Assembly: GCA_019314375.1 (NCBI GenBank)
Contig: JAFCZJ010000005.1
Coordinates: 6,910 to 70,909 of the forward strand
Source of the DNA: Deltaproteobacteria bacterium
Lineage (GTDB): Bacteria; Myxococcota; B64-G9
Length of the DNA: 64,000 nt
Direction of reading: 5' to 3'
A program made the translations under genes and the position numbers. Below are positions 1,810-12,114 of this stretch, piece by piece. How positions within the stretch are numbered: the stretch's first letter is position 1; every line of letters starts with the position of its first letter. The notes beneath the pieces were generated by a model, which made no database searches, was not told the DNA's origin, and worked only from the letters and a program-made list of their open reading frames with translations.

Positions 1810-3411
1810 TCAAAAGTCGAATATTTCCACCTTCACCCCGCTTGGCAATTCGGGTTCAAACTGACGGACACGATCAGCCAGCATGACCGCTGCTTTGCGG
1901 TTGGTGGCAAAAAAAGAAATACCGTCAAAGGCGCAGCTTTCGTTGTTCTGGATGGTCCAGCGGCTCACTCGGAACCAATTTTCAGGCAGTCCTCCAATTG
2001 AAGGTTTGGAAAACCATTCTTCATACAGAATGGCGATTTCCACATTGGCTTCTTTTGTGATGCGATCGATTGCCCGCCGGTTGTATTGACCGCTGTTTTT
2101 CAGATCGAGTACCTCGATATCAGCCAAACCGAATAGATCGACGCAGTGGATGTCGGCCAGGTGGTTGGGTGCGCCGATGTCATTAAGAGCTACTGTCTTT
2201 CCTGTATAAAATCGGTCCAAAAACCGGGCGGTTTGAATTTGCTGGTCGTGTATGCTCCGGCTGGATGCGGGCAGCAGGTAGACCGAAGCCACCGCGCGAA
2301 TGGCCATCAGGCACAAGGTGATGACCGCCAAGCTAAACCCCAGGCGGCGGGTCCAATTTCCGTTCAATTTCTTACGCAGCAGGTAGACCGGTTCGATCAT
2401 TGCGGCCATGCCCATGGCCACCAGATAGGCTTCGTAACGAAATAGCCAACCTGTCCGCGCGAACTGCAGGTGCATGGTGCAGGTCACAAGGAAAATCAAC
2501 GGCCCGAAGAGGATGGACTGCTTGTCACGAGGCCCACGCTTGAGGTGAAGAATCAGCGCAAACCCCAAGATTCCCATCAAGGCCATCAGGTGCGGGTTGG
2601 AGAGCAGTTGGATTGGCCCGGTTGAGATAAACGTCAAGAACCCCGCCATGGAGTTCAGATCCGGCAAGTTGCCCTTCATCAGCAGGGAGTTGGGAAAAAA
2701 ATGCCAACCCTTATGGATGGCCATCAGTCCGATGGCCGTGATGCCTGAGAGGCTCAGAAAACCGGTGACAAGGGCAAGCCGAAAACGGCGACGGAAAAGA
2801 AGCAATACAACCACCGTTGCAACCAGAAACAGACCCTCATACCGAGCAGCCACCAGCAGCGGAGCCAAGGCAGGCAGCAAATAGCGACCCCGTCTGGTTT
2901 CTTTGGAGTCCAGGGCTTTGGCCGCGAGAAAAGCAAACCAGATGCTAAGCAAGGTGTGCAAGCTGTGCTCCATGCCGCTATAGATCAAGGCGGGCAAGGG
3001 CACGAAAAAAGCGAACAAGAGCAGGAACAGGAAAACAAGTGGCTTGCTGAGAGGCATGCGCGCCAGCCATCCGTAAACTGAAAGACAGACCAGCGATGCC
3101 AGGATCAGGTTCCAGGCGAGTGGGATGATTTCGCTGTTGCCGAAGACAAATACCGAACAAGCCAGCAGAGAGGTCCACAAGGGAGAGGAAGAAGACGATG
3201 TGAATTCATAGGGGGTGATGCCCCAGACACCATGATGGGCCAGACTGTCGGCCATGGCCAAGTGAATGTAGGGGTCGTCCAGAGGATAGACAAGCCAAGC
3301 GATTCCGCTCCAGGCACCTGCGCTGAAAACGCCGGCCATCACCCCATACAGAATGAGCAAACAAGTCCAAAAAGGCCAGCCCGGCCATCTCGAGATGGGG
3401 GATCGAGTCAA
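1810..3411 (-). CDS. Polytopic membrane protein, probable GT-C fold glycosyltransferase
   Basis: Many hydrophobic segments, DDPYIH motif after TM1, SSSPLW, SGME, ARYEG, DLFGL; 4-nt overlap with the upstream stop. Confidence 0.7.
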   Translation of the reverse strand: MTRSPISRWPGWPFWTCLLILYGVMAGVFSAGAWSGIAWLVYPLDDPYIHLAMADSLAHHGVWGITPYEFTSSSSSPLWTSLLACSVFVFGNSEIIPLAWNLILASLVCLSVYGWLARMPLSKPLVFLFLLLFAFFVPLPALIYSGMEHSLHTLLSIWFAFLAAKALDSKETRRGRYLLPALAPLLVAARYEGLFLVATVVVLLLFRRRFRLALVTGFLSLSGITAIGLMAIHKGWHFFPNSLLMKGNLPDLNSMAGFLTFISTGPIQLLSNPHLMALMGILGFALILHLKRGPRDKQSILFGPLIFLVTCTMHLQFARTGWLFRYEAYLVAMGMAAMIEPVYLLRKKLNGNWTRRLGFSLAVITLCLMAIRAVASVYLLPASSRSIHDQQIQTARFLDRFYTGKTVALNDIGAPNHLADIHCVDLFGLADIEVLDLKNSGQYNRRAIDRITKEANVEIAILYEEWFSKPSIGGLPENWFRVSRWTIQNNESCAFDGISFFATNRKAAVMLADRVRQFEPELPSGVKVEIFDF

Positions 3412-4856
3412 TGGGCCTTACGTCGTCTCAACACCATCGGCGCAACCAGAAGGAGCAGGAACATACCCCCGGCAGGCCAGGAGCCCTGCCCTGGGTTTGT
3501 GGTGGCGCAAGAGATGATGAAATCGTCATCCGGGTTGGGCACGATGACGACCCGCAGGGTCATCTGGCTATCGGGCGCGCCTCGAAGTTGAACGGCCATC
3601 AGATTGCCTGAGTCGAGAGTTACCGGCATTTCCAATTCGTCAACCTCTCTACTGAAATCGCAGGGTCCGAAGACCTGTCCACCATTCAAGGCCACCAGTG
3701 CTGAAGTCACACGGGCGCTTCCATCTTCAAGGCCGTTCTCCAAGCAAATGTAGGCCTGGCCCGTCAAACCCGGTTGAGTGAAGGCGTCAAGGAAGGTGAC
3801 GGGCTTGCCCCTCGACCGAAGATAGGTCTTGGGTCCGAAGACCGGAATGGCCGCTGAGTTTTGACAACCTTCTCCAGTGGGGGGGGGATCATCAAAGACA
3901 AACTCAAAGAGGTAGATGTCCAAATTTTCGTTGCGATTATCGGTGAAGACCAGCCGATTGCCCGACAGGTCGTGCAAATATTGCTGGGCTGGATCGATGG
4001 TCACCTGTTCGCTGACATGCAAAACCAAAGAGTGAATCCAGATGTCGGAATCGCCCGAACCCCAGTCCTCATAGGCCACAAAGTCGCCGCTGACCGCCGG
4101 GTTGCGCTGGTACTCTGGGTCATCGGTGATCATATGAGTCGTCCCGTCGCTGATGCGATAAGCAAAAACGTCGCCCGGACTTGATCGGTTGCTGGTGAAA
4201 ACAATCCAGTCGCCATCCACATCCGGCTCCCTGTCCGAGGCCAAGTCCGTGGCTACAGCCGATTCGATGCCGGTGGCCAAGTCCAACATGAAAATATCTG
4301 CGTTGTCGTTGCGATAGTCTTCCCAAACCACGATTTGCCCGCTGATGACCGGTTTGATTTGCTGCGCAGGTGAATCGGTCAGGCGAGACTCTTCTCCGGT
4401 GACCAGGTTGATGAGGTAAACGTCGGAATCACCGTTGCGATTGTCTTCAAAGACCACATAGTCACCAGAAATTGCCGGGTTGCGCTGGGCCGCCGTGTCG
4501 TCTGTCAGTTGGACGGAGCTGGCCGAGTCGATGTCGTACAAAATGATATCTGCGTTGCCTTCGCCATAGTTTGTATACACAACATGCTGACCTGAAACGT
4601 CATTCAGGAGTTGATCACCGCCACCGGAGGTGATCTGCTGCTCCACCCCCGCCTCCAAATCATAGTAGTAGATGTCCGCGTCGGGGTTGCGCAAATCCGA
4701 GTAAACGGTGATAGCCCCCGAGATGGACGGATCGAATTGGTCAGCCGAATCCGTTGTGATCTGAGTTTCTATCCCATCGAAGCGGTATGCCAGTGCTGGT
4801 GCAGCCATCAAAGCGATCATGAACAGGGCCAAGGTCAATCGAAACATCTTTGTCAT
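3408..4856 (-). CDS. Cell-surface beta-propeller repeat protein (TolB-like/methanogen-type repeats) with MYXO-CTERM-like sorting signal
   Basis: Signal peptide MTKMFRLTLALFMIALMAAPALA; about 7 repeats like Q.NPAISGDYVVFEDNRNGDSDVYL; C-terminus SCATT..GGMFLLLLVAPMVLRRRKAH; ATG 4856 with AAGGAG RBS. Confidence 0.85.
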   Translation of the reverse strand: MTKMFRLTLALFMIALMAAPALAYRFDGIETQITTDSADQFDPSISGAITVYSDLRNPDADIYYYDLEAGVEQQITSGGGDQLLNDVSGQHVVYTNYGEGNADIILYDIDSASSVQLTDDTAAQRNPAISGDYVVFEDNRNGDSDVYLINLVTGEESRLTDSPAQQIKPVISGQIVVWEDYRNDNADIFMLDLATGIESAVATDLASDREPDVDGDWIVFTSNRSSPGDVFAYRISDGTTHMITDDPEYQRNPAVSGDFVAYEDWGSGDSDIWIHSLVLHVSEQVTIDPAQQYLHDLSGNRLVFTDNRNENLDIYLFEFVFDDPPPTGEGCQNSAAIPVFGPKTYLRSRGKPVTFLDAFTQPGLTGQAYICLENGLEDGSARVTSALVALNGGQVFGPCDFSREVDELEMPVTLDSGNLMAVQLRGAPDSQMTLRVVIVPNPDDDFIISCATTNPGQGSWPAGGMFLLLLVAPMVLRRRKAH

Positions 4857-4901
4857 GGCATGCGCTCCTTGGTATTTGCTTCGTCCCAAAAACAAAAGCC
4901 C

Positions 4902-4946
4902 AAAAAAACAAAACAGCGAAAGCTTCATCCGAAAAGCCTTCGCCGC
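4902..4946 (-). terminator. Intrinsic terminator (riboswitch expression platform)
   Basis: Minus-strand hairpin GCGGCGAAGGCTTT-loop-GAAGCTTTCGCTGT followed by TTTGTTTTTTT. Confidence 0.8.
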
Positions 4947-4960
4947 GCAAGCCCTGCATG

Positions 4961-5050
4961 ACCATCTTCGGCGGCCTGTCTACCGCAAAATAATCCTATG
5001 CGGCCATGGCTTTGCGCTCCAAGTTACCCTGGATTGCCTTTTCGGATGGT
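4961..5050 (-). ncRNA. c-di-GMP-I (GEMM) riboswitch aptamer
   Basis: Minus strand ACCATCCGAAAAGGCAATCCAGG-GTAA-CTTGGAGCGCAAAGCCATGGCCGCA..TGCGGTAGACAGGCCGCCGAAGATGGT shows P1 (ACCATC/GATGGT), P2 with a GNRA loop, the CGCAAAGCC junction, P3 and a GCCG 3' motif, matching the GEMM-I consensus. Confidence 0.85.
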
Positions 5051-5068
5051 ACAACTAAATTCCAGTTC

Positions 5069-5097
5069 AGTATAAAATGATAATTGGAAGATGTCAA
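5069..5097 (-). promoter_or_regulatory. sigma70-type promoter for the riboswitch leader
   Basis: TTGACA (5097-5092), 17 nt spacer, TATACT (5074-5069). Confidence 0.8.
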
Positions 5098-5120
5098 GAA
5101 GTAATATTCTTCGGTTTTCC

Positions 5121-6098
5121 TTATGGTTTCTTGTCCCGCCACATTTCGGGCGAGGTCTTTATCTGGAATGAATCAGCTCGGGTATCAACCGTGAATGAAT
5201 GCGATCGGATTTCTTTGACGTTGTTCCCCACATCCTCGGCTTTTATTGCAACTCGATGTTTTCCATCCCCAAGTTGCAGAACCTGGCGAAATTTGCCTCT
5301 CGGGTCCACTTCCACCACCACGCCAGCGACTCTCACCCGAGCGCCTGGCTGACAGCGACCCTTCACCAAAAGTCGTCCCGATGAGAGATTTCGCTCTTTG
5401 GGCCAGCGTACCTTGAGAAGCAGTTGTTTTGGGATGCGTATCGGATCCTCGGGCGGGCTGCCCTGCTCTACTCGCGCCATGTAGCCCGCATCAATCTGAA
5501 CGATCTTGCCTTCCGCCTCCAATTCAACCCGGCCCTTGCTGGCACCGACCGAGACCATCCCGGATTTATCCGCGTGCATCTTGAACTGACCACCCTGGGA
5601 ACGCGCCACCGCTCGTACCGCGGCCACCTCAACCAAATGTTTTGTGGCAGGCACCACGCTCGCATCAATCATGCCCTCTGCCAGAAGAAAGCGGAAAAGA
5701 TTCTCCGTTAAGGATTGAACCAAGAACTCTGAGTCTGAATCCATACGTACGGCAAATACGCCTGGCATCGACAAAGTCGCGCTTGATAAATTGCCTGTCC
5801 GGATTCTGTCTTGCGCTTGCAGCACCATGCCTTCTTCGGCATGAGACCAGTTTTTCCCATCACCACTGGCAACCTCAACCTGACCCTTAACCTGGTTGAG
5901 AGACAGAGCCATGGGAGCGGCTTGGGCCTGGGCTTCGATTTCGGGCAGTAGTCTGACCTTTAGCCCGGTGGGCGCGATGGGTGCCTCCTGATTTGTCCTG
6001 CTCACCGAGAGCCCGTGCTCGAACAAGATGAGGTACACGATGGGAACGCTGACGACAAACAAAATGATGGCGGATATGAAAAGCAATCGTTCCCGCAT
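5121..6098 (-). CDS. Membrane-anchored FecR-domain protein with C-terminal Ig-like domain
   Basis: N-terminal TM; FecR-like GMVLQAQDRIRTG..SATL; start overlaps the kinase stop (TGATG). Confidence 0.75.
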   Translation of the reverse strand: MRERLLFISAIILFVVSVPIVYLILFEHGLSVSRTNQEAPIAPTGLKVRLLPEIEAQAQAAPMALSLNQVKGQVEVASGDGKNWSHAEEGMVLQAQDRIRTGNLSSATLSMPGVFAVRMDSDSEFLVQSLTENLFRFLLAEGMIDASVVPATKHLVEVAAVRAVARSQGGQFKMHADKSGMVSVGASKGRVELEAEGKIVQIDAGYMARVEQGSPPEDPIRIPKQLLLKVRWPKERNLSSGRLLVKGRCQPGARVRVAGVVVEVDPRGKFRQVLQLGDGKHRVAIKAEDVGNNVKEIRSHSFTVDTRADSFQIKTSPEMWRDKKP

Positions 6099-7933
6099 CA
6101 GGAATTTCCGATCCAAGGCAACTCGATGCGGAATAGACTGCCCTCGCCCAGCTTGCTTTCCACGTCGATCCTCCCGCCATGATCCGTAATGATGCGATAG
6201 CTTTCGCTTAATCCCAAGCCTGTATTGGTCCAAACATCCTTGCTTGTGAAGAAGGGATCAAAAATTTTATCCACGCAATCCGACGGGATCCCAACCCCAT
6301 CGTCTCTCACCTCGACGAGCAGCCTCTCTTTTCCTTCGGTCATGGTTTGAATGTTTAGCTTGCCTCCATCCGGCATGGCCGTCAATGCATTGGAGAATAG
6401 ATTGAGAAAAACCTGCATCAATTGCCGATGATCACCAAGAATTTCAGGCAATTGCTCATCGAGCAACCAGTCGCTTTTTATACCCTGGGACAAGAGCCGC
6501 TGCTCCATCAAGGAATGGGCATCGAGAAGAACCTGATTGATGTCACAGGCGCTGTGCTCGGATTCAGCATCAAGCTCGCTGAAGCGCAACAGCCTCTGGA
6601 TGACATCCCGGCAGCGCTTTGCAGCGCCTTCCATTTCTTCCAGCACCTCCTGGCGCTTGGGCCATTCAGGGCCCTTGAGCTTGAGCAACTGCACGTTGCC
6701 GAGGATGCCGACAAGTGGATTGTTCACTTCATGAGCTACACCAGCACCGAGTTGACCGATGGCCGCCAGCTTGTTTGTTTGCAGCAAACGTTGATGGGCA
6801 ACGGCCAGTTCGTGGGTGCGCTCTTCGACTCGTTGCGCCAATTCTCGATTGAATCCTTCAATTTCCTCTCGAGAGGCTTGCAACTCTTCGCCCATGAGGT
6901 TGAAAGTCTTGGCCAACAAGCCCAACTCATCCCGGGTTTTTACCTCCACCCGAGTCGAAAGGTCGCCTCTGGCAAATGCTTCGGCACCAGCAGCCATTTT
7001 TCTGAGATTTTTGTTGATTCGGCCGGTGAACAATCCCCCAAGCAACAACAAGGCAAGGATGGAGAACCCAGTGCCCGTCATGGTGACCAAACGAGATCTT
7101 TTTACCTCGGCCCAAGCTGAATCGTGCTTCTCGTGCAGCACAACGCCCCATCCGGTCAGGCCCACCCGCGAATATGCGATCAGTCTGTCTTTATCAAAAA
7201 AAGCGTCTGCAATCATTCCAGCCTGCATCCTTGTCACGGCAGATTGCGTGGCCTGCAGGATACGCTCCTCCCTTTCTGCAAACCCGCCAAGAAACTGGCC
7301 GTTTTCGTCTACCAACGTGACGTTGAAACCTTGGGTGAAGGCGCTGTCCTGGATACGCTGGAGAACCCTCGACAGGCTCCACTGCAGTGCCAAAAGTTGG
7401 CCTGGCTTGCTCAGCGGAAAAAGCATGTTTAGCGAAGGGGCAGCGTTTGGGGATTTGCTAATTGAACCCAATACGACGCTTCCGGGTCCAGCCGCCTCCG
7501 CTCTGCGCATGGGCAATTGTTTGAGAAATTTTCGATGCTCGACTGCCGAAATCGCCTTTCGATGTCGATACTCTGGATACTTCTCAGGATGCGCCAAATA
7601 CACACCCGGCACGAGGGCTTCTGCCTGCGGATCTACCAGGGCCACCTGAGAAATGGTTTCGCTTTGCTTGTAGATGATGCCGAGCAAACCCTTCCACTCT
7701 TCTTTATTCATATCTGAAGTCGACATGTAGCCAAGCGCAGCCTGCACCCGCTCCAAAACTTCCCTGCTCTCATCGTTCGCAATTCCGGCAAGGTGCTTCG
7801 CCGCATCCAGCCTCGCGGCGATCAGCTGTTGAGCCATCTGTTGTTCACTGTGATGCAGCACCCCTAGACCCACCAGCATCGGGATGGCGGTAGCGGCCAC
7901 GACAAACAAAATCAACTGTTGATAAAGTTTCAT
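6098..7933 (-). CDS. Membrane sensor histidine kinase (periplasmic sensor, HAMP, HisKA, HATPase)
   Basis: Two TMs, HAMP (DELGLLAKTFN), H-box AHEVNNPL, NLFSNA, DDGVG, FDPFF, GLGL. Confidence 0.92.
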   Translation of the reverse strand: MKLYQQLILFVVAATAIPMLVGLGVLHHSEQQMAQQLIAARLDAAKHLAGIANDESREVLERVQAALGYMSTSDMNKEEWKGLLGIIYKQSETISQVALVDPQAEALVPGVYLAHPEKYPEYRHRKAISAVEHRKFLKQLPMRRAEAAGPGSVVLGSISKSPNAAPSLNMLFPLSKPGQLLALQWSLSRVLQRIQDSAFTQGFNVTLVDENGQFLGGFAEREERILQATQSAVTRMQAGMIADAFFDKDRLIAYSRVGLTGWGVVLHEKHDSAWAEVKRSRLVTMTGTGFSILALLLLGGLFTGRINKNLRKMAAGAEAFARGDLSTRVEVKTRDELGLLAKTFNLMGEELQASREEIEGFNRELAQRVEERTHELAVAHQRLLQTNKLAAIGQLGAGVAHEVNNPLVGILGNVQLLKLKGPEWPKRQEVLEEMEGAAKRCRDVIQRLLRFSELDAESEHSACDINQVLLDAHSLMEQRLLSQGIKSDWLLDEQLPEILGDHRQLMQVFLNLFSNALTAMPDGGKLNIQTMTEGKERLLVEVRDDGVGIPSDCVDKIFDPFFTSKDVWTNTGLGLSESYRIITDHGGRIDVESKLGEGSLFRIELPWIGNS

Positions 7934-10900
7934 GCCTGGTCTTTGGACCCCTCTTTATTCCCGGTTTCCTCCAGTTCTCCCTGCACCAGGACGCTGCCGG
8001 CCTGTTTTTTGGCCTCGGCTTTCAGCTGGGCTGCCATTTTCGCAATCTCAGCGTGACTGCACACCTGCCCCGGCTTCACGAGAATCGACGCCAAAGAGAT
8101 GCTCATGATAGGAAATCGGCGCAACTCGTCAAAACGGTCAGTCGTCTCAATATATCCTTTCGACTGATCTTCCTGTTTGTAATAGAGGGGGATCAGGCTA
8201 TCGAAATTCTTGATGATGCCATGGCAAATGGCCTGGAGGGATCCTGTCTCGGTCACCAACACAAAATCGTCACCCGCGATGTGACCGACAAAGTCGCTCG
8301 GCGTACCATGTTTTTCGACCGCTTTTCGAATCACGTCCCCAGTCTGTTGAATGACACCGTCTGCCTTGGCGTATCCGTAGTAATCATTGAAGGCCTTCAG
8401 ATTGTCCAAATCAAGGTAGCAAAGGCTAAAGCCTCGCAGGTCGAGCAAACGTCGATTGATTTCTCGGTCGAGAGCCAATGATCCGGGCAGCTTGGTGGTC
8501 GGGCTCGAGTCAAGCTCGCGCTCTTTCCGTTGGATGATCGTATCGACACGCGCTCCGAGTTCCAGGGTATCGAAAGGCTTGACCATGTAATCATCGCCGC
8601 CCAATTTAAGAGCCTTAACCTTGTCTTTTGTCTGGCCCCTGGCCGAGATGAAAATGATGGGCAGGTCCTTAAGCTTTCTGTCGGAACGAATTTGTTCGGT
8701 GACTTGAAATCCGTCCATGTCCGGCAGCATGACGTCGAGCAGGACCACATCCACTTGCTCGCGTTCAAGCCGCTTGAGCGCTTCTTCTCCACTTCCAGCC
8801 TCAACGACCGCGTAACCTTGCTCCTCCAGTACCCCTCGAGAGACTTCGCGAATGGCCGGGTCGTCATCCACGATAAGCACCTTGAACATTCTCTTGACCA
8901 GACGTCGTTTCTCGAGCAACTCCAAAACTTGTTCGAGGAGATTCGGCACGTCCACCGGCTTGGAGAGAAATGCAGCAGCGCCCGCCTCGTAGGCCGCATG
9001 TTCTTCCTGGGCCACGCTCAATACCAAGACAGGAATTTCGCGAGTCTCGGGATCGTGGTGAAGAATATCCGTAATCTGCAATCCGTCCACATCGGGCATG
9101 CGAATATCCATCAGGATCAGGGAGGGCAGGCGTTCTCGGGCCAATTCGAGGGCTTCCTTGCCCGAATGGGCAACGTAGACGTGGTAGCCCTGACTCATCA
9201 TCAGTCCCTTGATGACGTAGGTTGTGTTGACGTCGTCGTCCACCACCAGCAAACTCGGTGCCGTCTTGAATTTGGGCAGGCTGGGCATCAGACCGGGCAA
9301 GGTCCGAGCCTCTTCTGTCCCTTTCTGACCATCGTAAGCGGGCAGCGTGATGATAAACTCGGTCCCCTGCCCTCTTCCGCTCTCGACCCAGATGCTGCCG
9401 CCGTGGGCATCCACAATGTTTTTCGAGATGCTCAGGCCCAGGCCCGAACCGGAAACCGCGCCAGACCGGGCTCGTTTGGCCTGCTCGAATTTGTCAAAAA
9501 TTCGAGCGTGGTCTTGCTCGACAATTTCCTCCCCGTCGTTATACACACTCAATCCAATTAAGTCTGAGGTCAATGGGCTTGAGAGGACCTGGACCCGGAT
9601 GGTGCCGTCCTTTTGTGTGAACTTCAGGGCGTTGGATAGAAGGTTATTCAAGACCTGGTGCAAACGATTCCGATCACCCCAGACATGCACCATGTCCTCT
9701 GGCCGACGCAATTCCAGATGCACTTGGCGTTCTTCGGCAGCAGCCTGGTATTGGTCGATTGCCTCTTTGGCCAGTGCGTTCAAATCCAAGCGCGTCATGC
9801 GCATGTCCATTTTGCCGGAGGCATAGCGATTCAGGTCAAGCAGGTCGCTGATGATGGTGTTGAGCTTGTCGCAGCCGCCTCTCGCCAACTCGAGATATCG
9901 TTCCTGCTTCTCGTTGAGTTCTCCGGCGTAACGGTGGATCAGCAGGTCCAAGGCCCCGCCGATGCTGGTCAATGGAGTCCTGAGTTCATGGCTGACGATG
10001 GAGACGAACTCGTCCTTGCGCTCCTCCAGTCGCTTTTCCTCGGTGATGTCTCTGAGCACGACGGCCACACCCAGCAATTTGTCGTCCAGAGAGACCGGCG
10101 ACACAATGGATTGGAGAACACGATCAAAAACCTGGATTTCTTCACGCAGCGCTTCCCTGTCCCGGATGGCCCAGCCTCGCACCAGATCAAAAGGATAAAA
10201 TCCCAAGGTATCCTTCAAAAATCGTGTATCCACCTCTGCATCCGGCGAGAGGTGCAAAAGCTTCCGCGCCGCCGGGTTGATGACGAAGACGCTGTCTTGA
10301 TCATCGACCATGATGACCCCATCGGGCAGGCTCTGAACCATCAAGCGCAAGCGCTCTTGTTCCGTTGAAAGCTGCTTGCGCAGGCCATCGACGATCTCGG
10401 CGGTTTGGTTGGCCAGGATGTCGAGCATCTGCCCCGCATCCTCGCCCAAGCTGTCTTTTCGACTGTCGAACAACATGATCAGGCCAAGTGGTTTGTCATC
10501 CGCCTTGTGCAATACGGTGGCCACCTGAGATACAAATTCGCCATGCTCTACGTCACCAGGTTCTTGACCTGTCACCTGCAAAAGCAGTTCTTCTTCCGAG
10601 ATCAATCGTCCGGTGCGTTCTCGATATGCCTCAAGTGTTTGTTTTCTGATTTCGAACAACTGTTTTTGCCCCATTGGCTTGCGGCGATGGATGTACAAGA
10701 AAGCCTTGGCACCGCCGCCTTGTTCCAGCAGGGCGGCACAGGCGTCGAACTCGAGCATGAAGGGCAGGTATTTGAGGATCGCTCTGATGATCTCGGGATA
10801 TGAATTGGCCCGCGCGGCTTCCTTGCTCAGGTCCAAAAATACCGTCATGGCGTTAAGTCGAAGCTCGAGGTCGCTCAAGAGCTTTTCTTTGTCGCGGCGA

Positions 10901-11277
10901 AGCTGATAGGTCTCCAATCCATTGCGGATGGTGAAGAGCAGGTCGTTTAGATCCCAGGGTTTGGTGATGTAGCGATAGACTTGGCCCCGGTTGATGGCAT
11001 CGATGAGATCCTTGGGCTCGGTATAGCCGGTCAGAATGATACGCATCATCTGGGGTTGAATCTTGCGGGCATGTTCAATGAGTTCGATGCCCGTCATCTC
11101 GGGCATGCGCTGGTCGGTCAGCAGCAGATCCACCTGCTGTACTCGTAAAATTTCCAGTGCTTCCGCCCCGCTCCCGGCGGTCAAAATCTCATAATCGTCT
11201 TCCAGGGCCCGCTCAAGCACATTCAGAGCGTCCTTTTCGTCGTCCACGGCCAAGATGCGATAGCGATGTGTCGTCAT
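7930..11277 (-). CDS. Cytoplasmic hybrid kinase: REC-GAF-like-PAS-HisKA-HATPase-REC-REC-GGDEF
   Basis: REC (LTDQRMP), SHELRTPL, NLLSNA, GSGLGL, two more REC domains (MDIRMP, LDVMLP), DLDNLKAFNDYYG and GHIAGDDF; start MTTHRY with GGAG RBS. Confidence 0.9.
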   Translation of the reverse strand: MTTHRYRILAVDDEKDALNVLERALEDDYEILTAGSGAEALEILRVQQVDLLLTDQRMPEMTGIELIEHARKIQPQMMRIILTGYTEPKDLIDAINRGQVYRYITKPWDLNDLLFTIRNGLETYQLRRDKEKLLSDLELRLNAMTVFLDLSKEAARANSYPEIIRAILKYLPFMLEFDACAALLEQGGGAKAFLYIHRRKPMGQKQLFEIRKQTLEAYRERTGRLISEEELLLQVTGQEPGDVEHGEFVSQVATVLHKADDKPLGLIMLFDSRKDSLGEDAGQMLDILANQTAEIVDGLRKQLSTEQERLRLMVQSLPDGVIMVDDQDSVFVINPAARKLLHLSPDAEVDTRFLKDTLGFYPFDLVRGWAIRDREALREEIQVFDRVLQSIVSPVSLDDKLLGVAVVLRDITEEKRLEERKDEFVSIVSHELRTPLTSIGGALDLLIHRYAGELNEKQERYLELARGGCDKLNTIISDLLDLNRYASGKMDMRMTRLDLNALAKEAIDQYQAAAEERQVHLELRRPEDMVHVWGDRNRLHQVLNNLLSNALKFTQKDGTIRVQVLSSPLTSDLIGLSVYNDGEEIVEQDHARIFDKFEQAKRARSGAVSGSGLGLSISKNIVDAHGGSIWVESGRGQGTEFIITLPAYDGQKGTEEARTLPGLMPSLPKFKTAPSLLVVDDDVNTTYVIKGLMMSQGYHVYVAHSGKEALELARERLPSLILMDIRMPDVDGLQITDILHHDPETREIPVLVLSVAQEEHAAYEAGAAAFLSKPVDVPNLLEQVLELLEKRRLVKRMFKVLIVDDDPAIREVSRGVLEEQGYAVVEAGSGEEALKRLEREQVDVVLLDVMLPDMDGFQVTEQIRSDRKLKDLPIIFISARGQTKDKVKALKLGGDDYMVKPFDTLELGARVDTIIQRKERELDSSPTTKLPGSLALDREINRRLLDLRGFSLCYLDLDNLKAFNDYYGYAKADGVIQQTGDVIRKAVEKHGTPSDFVGHIAGDDFVLVTETGSLQAICHGIIKNFDSLIPLYYKQEDQSKGYIETTDRFDELRRFPIMSISLASILVKPGQVCSHAEIAKMAAQLKAEAKKQAGSVLVQGELEETGNKEGSKDQA

Positions 11278-11367
11278 GGATGTCTCCCGTGCCGATGCTA
11301 ACACAACAGGGCGTTTTGGCAACATGAGGGCTTGCAGATGATGACAACCTCGGTCATCATGGCCACG

Positions 11368-12114
11368 ATGGAAAATCTTCAATTTAGAGTGAAGTATCGA
11401 TCATGGACTGCCCTGCGCAAGGACATCGAAGAGCAAATGTCTATGTGGGGATTGCTGCTCCGCACGGAGATTCAAGCCGAGCTCTATACGCCGGTCGAAC
11501 TGAACATCATCGCACCGGACGGACGATTGTTGGAGTTCAAAGCTCAGGTGCTGCAGCACATTCCGGGTCAGGGCCTCGCCTTGAAGCTAGAGCAAACGGA
11601 TCCAGAGGTCCGGCGAGAGTTGGAAGCATGGCTTGCCGTGGACATCGACGACGCGGTCGATGGCGAGGATCCCAAAGTACGGCTTGCGGGCGAGGAAAGC
11701 CCTGAGCAACCTGAAAGCGCCATTCAGAAAATCGACCAAATGACCGTTACGGAAAAGCGGAGGGCCGCACTTCGAGGCAAGAAGGACATGAGGACCCTGC
11801 TCATCCGTGATCGCAACAAGACGATCCATCCCTTCATTCTCAAGAACCCGTCCATCACTTTGGACGAGATAGAGCAAATCGCAAAGATGCCGGGGGTCAA
11901 TCCGGATGTGCTTCGCTTGATCGCCCGCAACCGGGACTGGACCCGCTCGACCACGGTGGTGCGCAATTTGGTGCGAAATCCCAAGACGCCCATGAAAGAG
12001 GCCCTGACTCTGCTGAAAAAGCTACCCAAAAACGACATTCGAGCCATGGCCAAGACAGGCAACGTGCGTACCGCCATCCAGACGGCTGCTCGTAAGATCG
12101 TAAGGGAACTTTAG
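11368..12114 (+). CDS. PilZ-like N-terminal domain plus helical repeat C-terminal domain
   Basis: N-terminal beta-rich segment resembling myxobacterial PilZ domains; C-terminal region (EKRRAALRG..LIRDRNK..LVRNPKTP) of a kind common in deltaproteobacterial proteins. Confidence 0.65.
   Translation: MENLQFRVKYRSWTALRKDIEEQMSMWGLLLRTEIQAELYTPVELNIIAPDGRLLEFKAQVLQHIPGQGLALKLEQTDPEVRRELEAWLAVDIDDAVDGEDPKVRLAGEESPEQPESAIQKIDQMTVTEKRRAALRGKKDMRTLLIRDRNKTIHPFILKNPSITLDEIEQIAKMPGVNPDVLRLIARNRDWTRSTTVVRNLVRNPKTPMKEALTLLKKLPKNDIRAMAKTGNVRTAIQTAARKIVREL

Follow-up and report, generated by a model that had tools for sequence, protein, structure and literature searches.

Introduction

Among the closest described counterparts of the element considered here is Cd1, a c-di-GMP-I riboswitch (class I, for cyclic diguanylate, c-di-GMP) upstream of the Clostridioides difficile flgB operon, which works as a transcriptional OFF switch (PMC9262584, PMC11477304). 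Its anti-terminator consists of the strands A+T(+H), A being the 3′ strand of the aptamer (PMC9262584), and the genes described behind class I OFF switches in C. difficile include flagellar ones and those of a secreted protease and of a putative adhesion protein (PMC11477304). Here, we analyzed a stretch of 64,000 nucleotides (nt), hereafter the window, from a Deltaproteobacteria bacterium of the Myxococcota (assembly GCA_019314375.1, contig JAFCZJ010000005.1, positions 6,910 to 70,909). On its minus strand, positions 5097-4885 probably hold a complete transcriptional c-di-GMP-I OFF switch, which would act through an anti-terminator helix of 11 base pairs (bp) and control the gene of a secreted beta-propeller protein. 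We assign this reading a probability of roughly 0.75. A narrow literature search, which is no proof of absence in print, found nothing specific on this riboswitch in Myxococcota.

The features of the switch are given below in window coordinates.

5097-5069, minus strand: sigma-70-type promoter with TTGACA (5097-5092), a 17-nt spacer and TATACT (5074-5069)
5050-4961, minus strand: c-di-GMP-I (GEMM-I) aptamer including P1, from the Rfam RF01051 match and the alignment of related aptamers
5048-5038, minus strand: 5′ (P) strand of the predicted anti-terminator, CAUCCGAAAAG, with four of the six P1 nucleotides and J1/2 including the G20 equivalent
4953-4945, minus strand: linker GGCUUGCGC, complementary to the aptamer core GCGCAA.GCC (5017-5008)
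4946-4913, minus strand: intrinsic terminator hairpin of 14 pairs with a 6-nt loop, followed by TTTGTTTTTT
4936-4926, minus strand: 3′ (T) strand of the predicted anti-terminator, CUUUUCGGAUG, in the terminator loop and inner stem
4912-4885, minus strand: U-rich tract 3′ of the terminator, UUUGUUUUUUU GGGC UUUUGUUUUU
3408-4870, minus strand: putatively regulated gene with the ribosome-binding site AAGGAG (4870-4865), ATG at 4856, 482 amino acids

Layout of the leader and its competing helices

Promoter, aptamer, terminator and U-rich tract all lie, in this order, in a 264-nt gap on the minus strand, bounded by the stop codon (5121) of a gene for a FecR-domain protein and by the ATG (4856) of the gene that follows. 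A first-pass annotation, made from the letters of the window alone, had claimed a near-consensus promoter, which was borne out by 11 of 12 matches to the sigma-70 consensus; no other promoter-like site was found within 4600-5400 (shuffle mean 0.5), and transcription would start at about 5062. Similar hexamers stand at the same distance from the aptamer in the five leaders of orthologous genes that are compared below (L003, L004, L010, L011 and L040). A terminator scan of the region returned one site against 0.8 expected, which is not significant alone. The terminator named in the earlier annotation was recovered as the 14-pair hairpin with its U-tract, and a hairpin followed by a U-tract recurs at the equivalent place in four of the five orthologous leaders, the exception being L003, whose hairpin is GC-rich with a weak U-tract.

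The central observation can be read directly: CATCCGAAAAG (5048-5038), at the 5′ side of the aptamer, is the exact reverse complement of CTTTTCGGATG (4936-4926), so that the perfect 11-nt complementarity reported before is real. When the 47 nt downstream were dinucleotide-shuffled and matched against the 92-nt aptamer, a Watson-Crick run of at least 11 arose in 36 of 5000 shuffles; owing to the A-rich aptamer and the U-rich platform, this rate exceeds a naive estimate, but such a run is still uncommon. The 3′ partner had been placed inside the terminator, and it does lie within the hairpin, though in the loop and the inner ends of both arms and not in one arm, since 4936-4933 close the 5′ arm, 4932-4927 form the loop and G4926 follows it. 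The 11-bp helix and the hairpin are therefore mutually exclusive. Within the P strand, the segment CGAAAAG (5044-5038) is proposed to serve as a toehold. The linker adds a secondary anti-aptamer helix with the core, which overlaps the terminator base by 1-2 nt and has counterparts in UUGCGC of L003, UUUGCG of L004, and CGCUCC facing GGAGCG in L010, L011 and L040.

An AUG in the terminator loop (4928-4926), which is in frame and has a weak AAGG upstream, was considered as a start codon and rejected: in L010 the corresponding AUG lies outside the reading frame, and it is from the ATG at 4856 that the signal peptide starts.

Folding model and proposed mechanism

Fold energies were calculated for a transcript truncated right after the terminator stem; in the full-length transcript, the minimum free energy (MFE) structure pairs the aptamer 5′ strand with the U-tract, which is irrelevant to the termination decision, and truncated transcripts were used instead. 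The terminator begins 15 nt after P1, and aptamer and terminator are therefore compatible. With P1 enforced, the fold containing the full aptamer and the terminator reached -50.7 kcal/mol, and the anti-terminator fold, comprising the 11-bp helix, the core helix (5017-5008/4953-4945) and a rearranged central hairpin, reached -56.3 to -57.5 kcal/mol. Along a length series of truncated transcripts, the MFE structure consisted of P1 and aptamer at 4961, and the 11-bp helix entered it at 4926. In the equilibrium ensemble, the terminator probability, scored in the window on the central eight terminator pairs, was 0.144 and rose to 0.807 and 0.984 when a bonus of -8 or -10 kcal/mol, respectively, was given to aptamer-folded states. 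If the J1/2 bases 5044-5038 were forbidden to pair, it was 0.992. Blocking the aptamer core (0.048) or the aptamer 3′ strand (0.162) raised termination in neither case. In this model, the 11-bp helix appears as the operative anti-terminator of the window and alone decides the outcome, the core helix being dispensable for switching. The OFF mechanism proposed in the first-pass annotation thus finds support in silico, as the helix excludes both aptamer and terminator and the ligand bonus raises predicted termination.

The same calculations bear on the question of which pairing would act as anti-terminator. An OFF switch could rely on the classical pairing of the aptamer 3′ side (GCCGC..AAG with CUU..GCGGC) or on the core pairing (GCGCAA.GCC with the linker), the 11-bp helix then being secondary or incidental. 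Cd1 does combine its 3′ aptamer strand with a switching strand (PMC9262584), the terminator-blocked fold of L003 uses a classical 3′-strand pairing (GGCUGC with GCGGCC, AAGAU with GUCUU), a core-complementary segment is found just 5′ of the terminator in all six leaders, and the core duplex of the window (-17.8 kcal/mol) was equalled by 43 of 1000 shuffles. However, termination rose upon blocking of the P strand and not of the other two, the 3′-strand duplex was no better than its shuffles (541 of 1000), and in the modelled fold a 12-bp terminator coexists with the core helix. We regard a classical or core anti-terminator as unlikely in the window.

On this basis, the following course of events is conceivable. 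Transcription would start near 5062, and the aptamer (5050-4961) would be the first part to emerge. Bound c-di-GMP would lock P1 and the J1/2 bases, G5038 among them, into the ligand pocket; the segment 4946-4913 would then fold alone into the terminator, and RNA polymerase would stop in the U-tract. Without ligand, the single-stranded J1/2 segment could offer a toehold to CUUUUCG (4936-4930) as soon as this is transcribed; the duplex would then grow into P1 (CAUC with GAUG) to complete the 11-bp helix. As this helix would already hold the terminator loop and inner stem when transcription arrives at the 3′ arm, the polymerase would read through into the gene.

A switch of the opposite sign, in which ligand binding raises readthrough, is highly improbable. 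Related Geobacter GEMM-Ib switches are ON switches (PMC9262584, PMC6456294), and nothing else in our analysis pointed in this direction. An ON design needs a terminator that overlaps the aptamer, whereas the one in the window stands clear of P1 and coexists with the aptamer. Moreover, the anti-terminator would consume the ligand-contacting G5038 together with P1, and the bonus lowered termination in none of the six leaders.

Aptamer identity and ligand

That the aptamer belongs to class I can be stated with very high confidence. The covariance model RF01051 (c-di-GMP-I) matched 5048-4967 of the minus strand over its full length (1-87) with 42.0 bits and an E value of 7.9e-05, above the gathering score of 35, in agreement with the GEMM-I assignment made before. 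A search of the whole genome (6.66 Mb, 370 contigs; 150 of 622 candidates scored) gave the window locus as the single match above the cut-off, and a genome-wide regular-expression scan revealed no second convincing copy; its two matches were the window locus and a loose 135-nt match elsewhere, which was judged spurious. P1, left unannotated by the Rfam model, is formed by ACCAUC (5050-5045) and GAUGGU (4966-4961), and the P2 hairpin UCCAGG-GUAA-CUUGGA (5033-5018) carries the GUAA loop that had been noted. With RNAalifold, P1, P2 and P3 were recovered from 20 related aptamers, with 8 of 19 pairs changed on both sides; these aptamers comprise 15 from the taxonomic family (here the whole order, 18 genomes) and 5 from metagenomes, and their kinship inflates the count of independent events. 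As examples, the P1 pair 3:131 occurs as GC (15), GU (3) and AU (1), and the P2 pair 24:38 as AU (9), GC (7), GU (2) and CG (1). The closing pair of P1 is A-U in the window, G-C in L003, L010, L011 and L040, and G-U in L004.

The canonical contact of type 1 GEMM aptamers, in which a GNRA tetraloop of P2 docks into a receptor in P3, is doubtful, because the P3 receptor region is altered and the P2 loops vary among the orthologs, from GNRA-type to UUUU or UUGU; in the Rfam alignment, the window has a deletion on the receptor side. Separately, the loop insertion of P3, GAUUAUUUU (4986-5000, minus strand), was found to be complementary, G-U pairs included, to the region of the P1 3′ strand, AAGAUGGUC (4959-4968). 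This pairing is the central hairpin of the anti-terminator fold, and it would tie up the displaced P1 3′ strand.

With respect to the ligand, the Rfam alignment gives G5038, A5013 and C4971 as the equivalents of G20, A47 and C92 of the Vibrio cholerae aptamer Vc2. The G occupies model position 11 (unpaired, just 5′ of the first P2 pair), the A position 38, right after the closing GC, and the C is the first of CCGAA. We take A47 to be a ligand-contacting nucleotide. All three columns are invariant in the 20 aligned aptamers, so that the earlier statement on their retention held beyond the window, and for this reason c-di-GMP is favored over 3′,3′-cyclic GMP-AMP (cGAMP) as the ligand. In the literature, G20 reads G-alpha, C92 pairs with G-beta, an A replaces G20 in cGAMP aptamers, and wild-type Vc2 discriminates against cGAMP (PMC6140456).

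The view that cGAMP, or both dinucleotides and not c-di-GMP alone, is sensed here is nonetheless fed by several facts. Among deltaproteobacterial relatives, Geobacter has GEMM-I aptamers for cGAMP (PMC6456294), and some natural aptamers are bispecific (PMC6140456). Within the genome, 23 GGDEF matches were counted, with the base-reading motif readable in 13 of them, as Asp in 12 and Ser in one. The latter protein, encoded outside the window on another contig (C73:14676-15512, minus strand, 278 amino acids), joins a GAF-like domain to a GGDEF domain with Ser at the base-reading position (FKNVNDAHGHLCGS), a combination that constitutes the Hypr signature of cGAMP-making enzymes (PMC6456294). An A20-type GEMM aptamer did not turn up in this genome. 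cGAMP may therefore exist in the organism, but the aptamer of the window bears the c-di-GMP signature, with G at the position-20 equivalent here and in all 20 related aptamers, where cGAMP aptamers have A (PMC6140456). Furthermore, the Geobacter cGAMP switches are ON switches (PMC6456294, PMC9262584), unlike the platform of the window. Sensing of cGAMP is thus quite unlikely in our view, and c-di-GMP remains the ligand that we infer.

Orthologous leaders and the weight of the comparative evidence

Among the 18 genomes of the order, 11 contained RF01051 matches at E ≤0.001, with 15 matches in total. Four of the leaders (L003, L004, L010, L011) precede orthologs of the window gene (52-63% identity over 376-403 residues), and L040, from the metagenomes, precedes a further ortholog with 53% identity. 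The design is conserved in that all six leaders, including the window, combine promoter-like hexamers at equal distance with a terminator clear of the aptamer. For each leader, the first 22 nt of the aptamer were then paired with the downstream platform and compared with 1000 shuffles. The P-strand duplex of the window (-21.3 kcal/mol) was equalled by 4 of these, and the corresponding counts were 35 for L004, 1 for L010, 7 for L011 and 0 for L040. In these four leaders and in the window, the terminator hairpin includes CGGAUG, the complement of CAUCCG. An extra pairing of UGGAUUGCC with GGCAAUCCA is present in L010, L011 and L040, and the best fold of L004 pairs GAAAGGGCA with UGCUCUUUC. The 5′ arm and loop of the terminator (19 nt) are identical in L010, L011 and L040, with a 3′ arm that has diverged and pairs in another register, as expected if the 5′ arm serves two partners. 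In L100 and L065, which have the same aptamer type before other genes, GGAUUG(C/U)CC lies in the terminator 5′ arm.

For the comparison of termination across the six leaders, the outer eight terminator pairs were scored. This metric understates the terminator of the window, because C4945 is shared with the core helix; the central-stem criterion was applied to the window alone, and the values of the five other leaders refer to the outer stem. Upon addition of the bonus, predicted termination increased from 0.17 to 0.91 in L040 and from 0.32 to 0.84 in L003.

Several points weigh against the proposed OFF switch and its 11-bp helix. The equilibrium model gives clear switching in the window, L040 and L003 only; L004 is nearly static (0.72 to 0.83), and the predicted termination of L010 and L011 stays at 0.95 whatever bonus is given, so that any switching there would have to be kinetic. 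The helix closes a loop of about 100 nt and has to compete with a local hairpin within about 10-25 nt of transcription. The CGGAUG element is missing from L003, where the P-strand duplex does not stand out, being equalled by 214 of 1000 shuffles. As L010, L011 and L040 are close kin, the leaders represent about four lineages and not six, and the aptamer side of the anti-terminator is too conserved to show covariation. The aptamer itself departs from the model in P3, where Rfam positions 51-54 are deleted and the loop carries an insertion. The assignment of Vc2 numbers to Rfam positions is in part our assumption, and the genome does encode the one Hypr-signature GGDEF protein described above.

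The static behavior of L010 and L011 and the kinetic disadvantage of a long-range helix against a local hairpin would also suit a leader without ligand-dependent termination, be it a constitutive attenuator or an aptamer that acts via RNA stability, Rho or translation. Yet aptamer, terminator and complementarity have been kept together before the same gene in about four lineages, the ribosome-binding site lies beyond the terminator and outside the predicted alternative pairings, and the model of the window switches strongly. Absence of switching at the level of termination is consequently very unlikely in our estimation, and actual termination in response to the ligand, with toehold kinetics, is what we infer for the window.

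It is conceivable, with the odds about even, that a whole clade of class I c-di-GMP riboswitches in this uncultured Myxococcota-like order uses such a 'P-T' platform, in which the terminator carries the complement of the aptamer 5′ strand and the ligand-contacting J1/2 bases form the toehold for strand invasion. If so, ligand binding and anti-terminator nucleation would compete for the same nucleotides, which would turn the leader into a compact natural model of toehold-gated riboswitch kinetics. In addition, secreted proteins that share an uncharacterized, beta-sandwich-like domain may form a small regulon marked by this leader.

A metagenome scan with the 18-mer CATCCGAAARGGCAATCC returned 119 exact matches (L026-L144), of which 7 passed a core-motif filter, and an ortholog lay downstream in L040 only. 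The 112 others are not GEMM-I leaders by this filter, and gut metagenome records account for many of them. Outside the family, the closest homologs of the beta-propeller protein (L016-L018, 55-63% identity, from metagenome-assembled genomes labelled Myxococcales or delta proteobacterium) gave no GEMM-I match in the upstream 1.5 kb at E ≤0.1; the link between riboswitch and gene thus holds for only part of the gene family.

The putatively regulated gene and its surroundings

The product of the putatively regulated gene carries a signal peptide and seven beta-propeller repeats, besides a C-terminal domain and a hydrophobic tail with RRRK after it. TIGR04275 scored 262.5 bits over seven stretches, and MYXO-CTERM scored 16.4 bits on the tail, below its cut-off of 20. 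For residues of about 334-468 (window 3411-3899), no Pfam family was found at E ≤1; look-alikes of this domain in the Atlas were of beta-sandwich types and below the naming threshold. Homologs are named 'beta propeller repeat protein' or 'TolB protein' only, and one is labelled Myxococcota. Judged by these features, the product is a secreted or surface protein and a putative seven-repeat beta-propeller, for which the label of an adhesin is unsupported. The first-pass annotation had considered repression of a surface protein by c-di-GMP as opposite to the usual adhesin logic. We found no ground for this contrast, since no adhesin role is shown for the product and the C. difficile OFF switches provide precedents (PMC11477304).

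Lipoproteins whose genes follow three other GEMM-I riboswitches of the taxonomic family (L008, L014 and L015) have at their N-terminus a domain with 31-37% identity to the C-terminal domain of the product, and the other riboswitch targets in the family look secreted as well. The recurrence is a hint of a small riboswitch regulon whose members have one uncharacterized domain in common.

The ribosome-binding site of the gene follows the terminator by 43 nt and takes part in no predicted alternative pairing, and a weak terminator-like site stands after the stop codon. Directly after the propeller gene, an open reading frame (ORF) of 533 amino acids (1810-3411, minus strand) gave no Pfam or NCBIfam match and is without counterpart in the orthologous loci L145 and L146, where homologs of the zinc-ribbon ORF 1021-1491 and of ORF 2-1057 come after the propeller gene. 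The 533-amino-acid ORF is thus a lineage-specific insertion, unless it is no gene at all. Upstream on the same strand, the riboswitch is preceded, in the direction of transcription, by genes for a hybrid histidine kinase (7930-11382), a histidine kinase with HAMP domain (6098-7933) and the FecR-domain protein (5121-6233). The hybrid kinase, three genes upstream, has three receiver domains and a C-terminal partial, degenerate GGDEF domain with the motif AGDDF, its Pfam match spanning positions 6-94 of 161.

Comparison with known systems

As for its significance, the locus represents a known riboswitch class with a known OFF logic and, as far as the in silico support goes, a less common anti-terminator built on the aptamer 5′ strand. 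Knowledge of the class is left unchanged, and repression of secreted or surface factors by c-di-GMP has precedent. What is gained is a well-resolved, apparently single-copy c-di-GMP-I riboswitch in a poorly studied uncultured lineage, together with its link to a target that is conserved and that encodes a secreted beta-propeller of seven repeats with a MYXO-CTERM-like tail. With its short leader and unusually readable alternative folds, it would make a convenient test case for a 5′-strand anti-terminator in competition with ligand binding.

Among the described systems, the structural reference Vc2 shares with the window the G20, A47 and C92 equivalents and the two hairpins closed by P1, but the window differs in its altered tetraloop-receptor region of P3. 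The Geobacter GEMM-Ib cGAMP switches (pilM/Gmet_0970, GSU1761) share the Rfam family, the deltaproteobacterial neighborhood, the terminator-based design and extracellular or surface targets (PMC6456294, PMC9262584). They have A at position 20, are ON switches, and their terminator excludes the aptamer (PMC9262584, PMC6456294), whereas the adenine is absent from the window and from all 20 related aptamers, which have G (G5038 in the window), and the aptamer of the window is compatible with its terminator.

The logic of the window switch matches that of Cd1, which likewise combines a class I aptamer with a non-overlapping intrinsic terminator; both coexist and compete with an anti-terminator, and the ligand favors termination (PMC9262584, PMC11477304). 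A compatible downstream terminator was found in the window as well, together with a predicted anti-terminator that excludes aptamer and terminator. An anti-terminator on the 3′ strand, as in Cd1, was not recovered, given that this duplex was equalled by more than half of the shuffles (541 of 1000) and that its blocking left the terminator probability at 0.162. Instead, the modelled anti-terminator of the window pairs the 5′ strand P with J1/2 against the terminator loop and inner stem and encloses the whole aptamer. The two systems also belong to different phyla and precede different genes. As modelled here, the riboswitch of the window is therefore Cd1-like in its logic and unlike Cd1 in its wiring.

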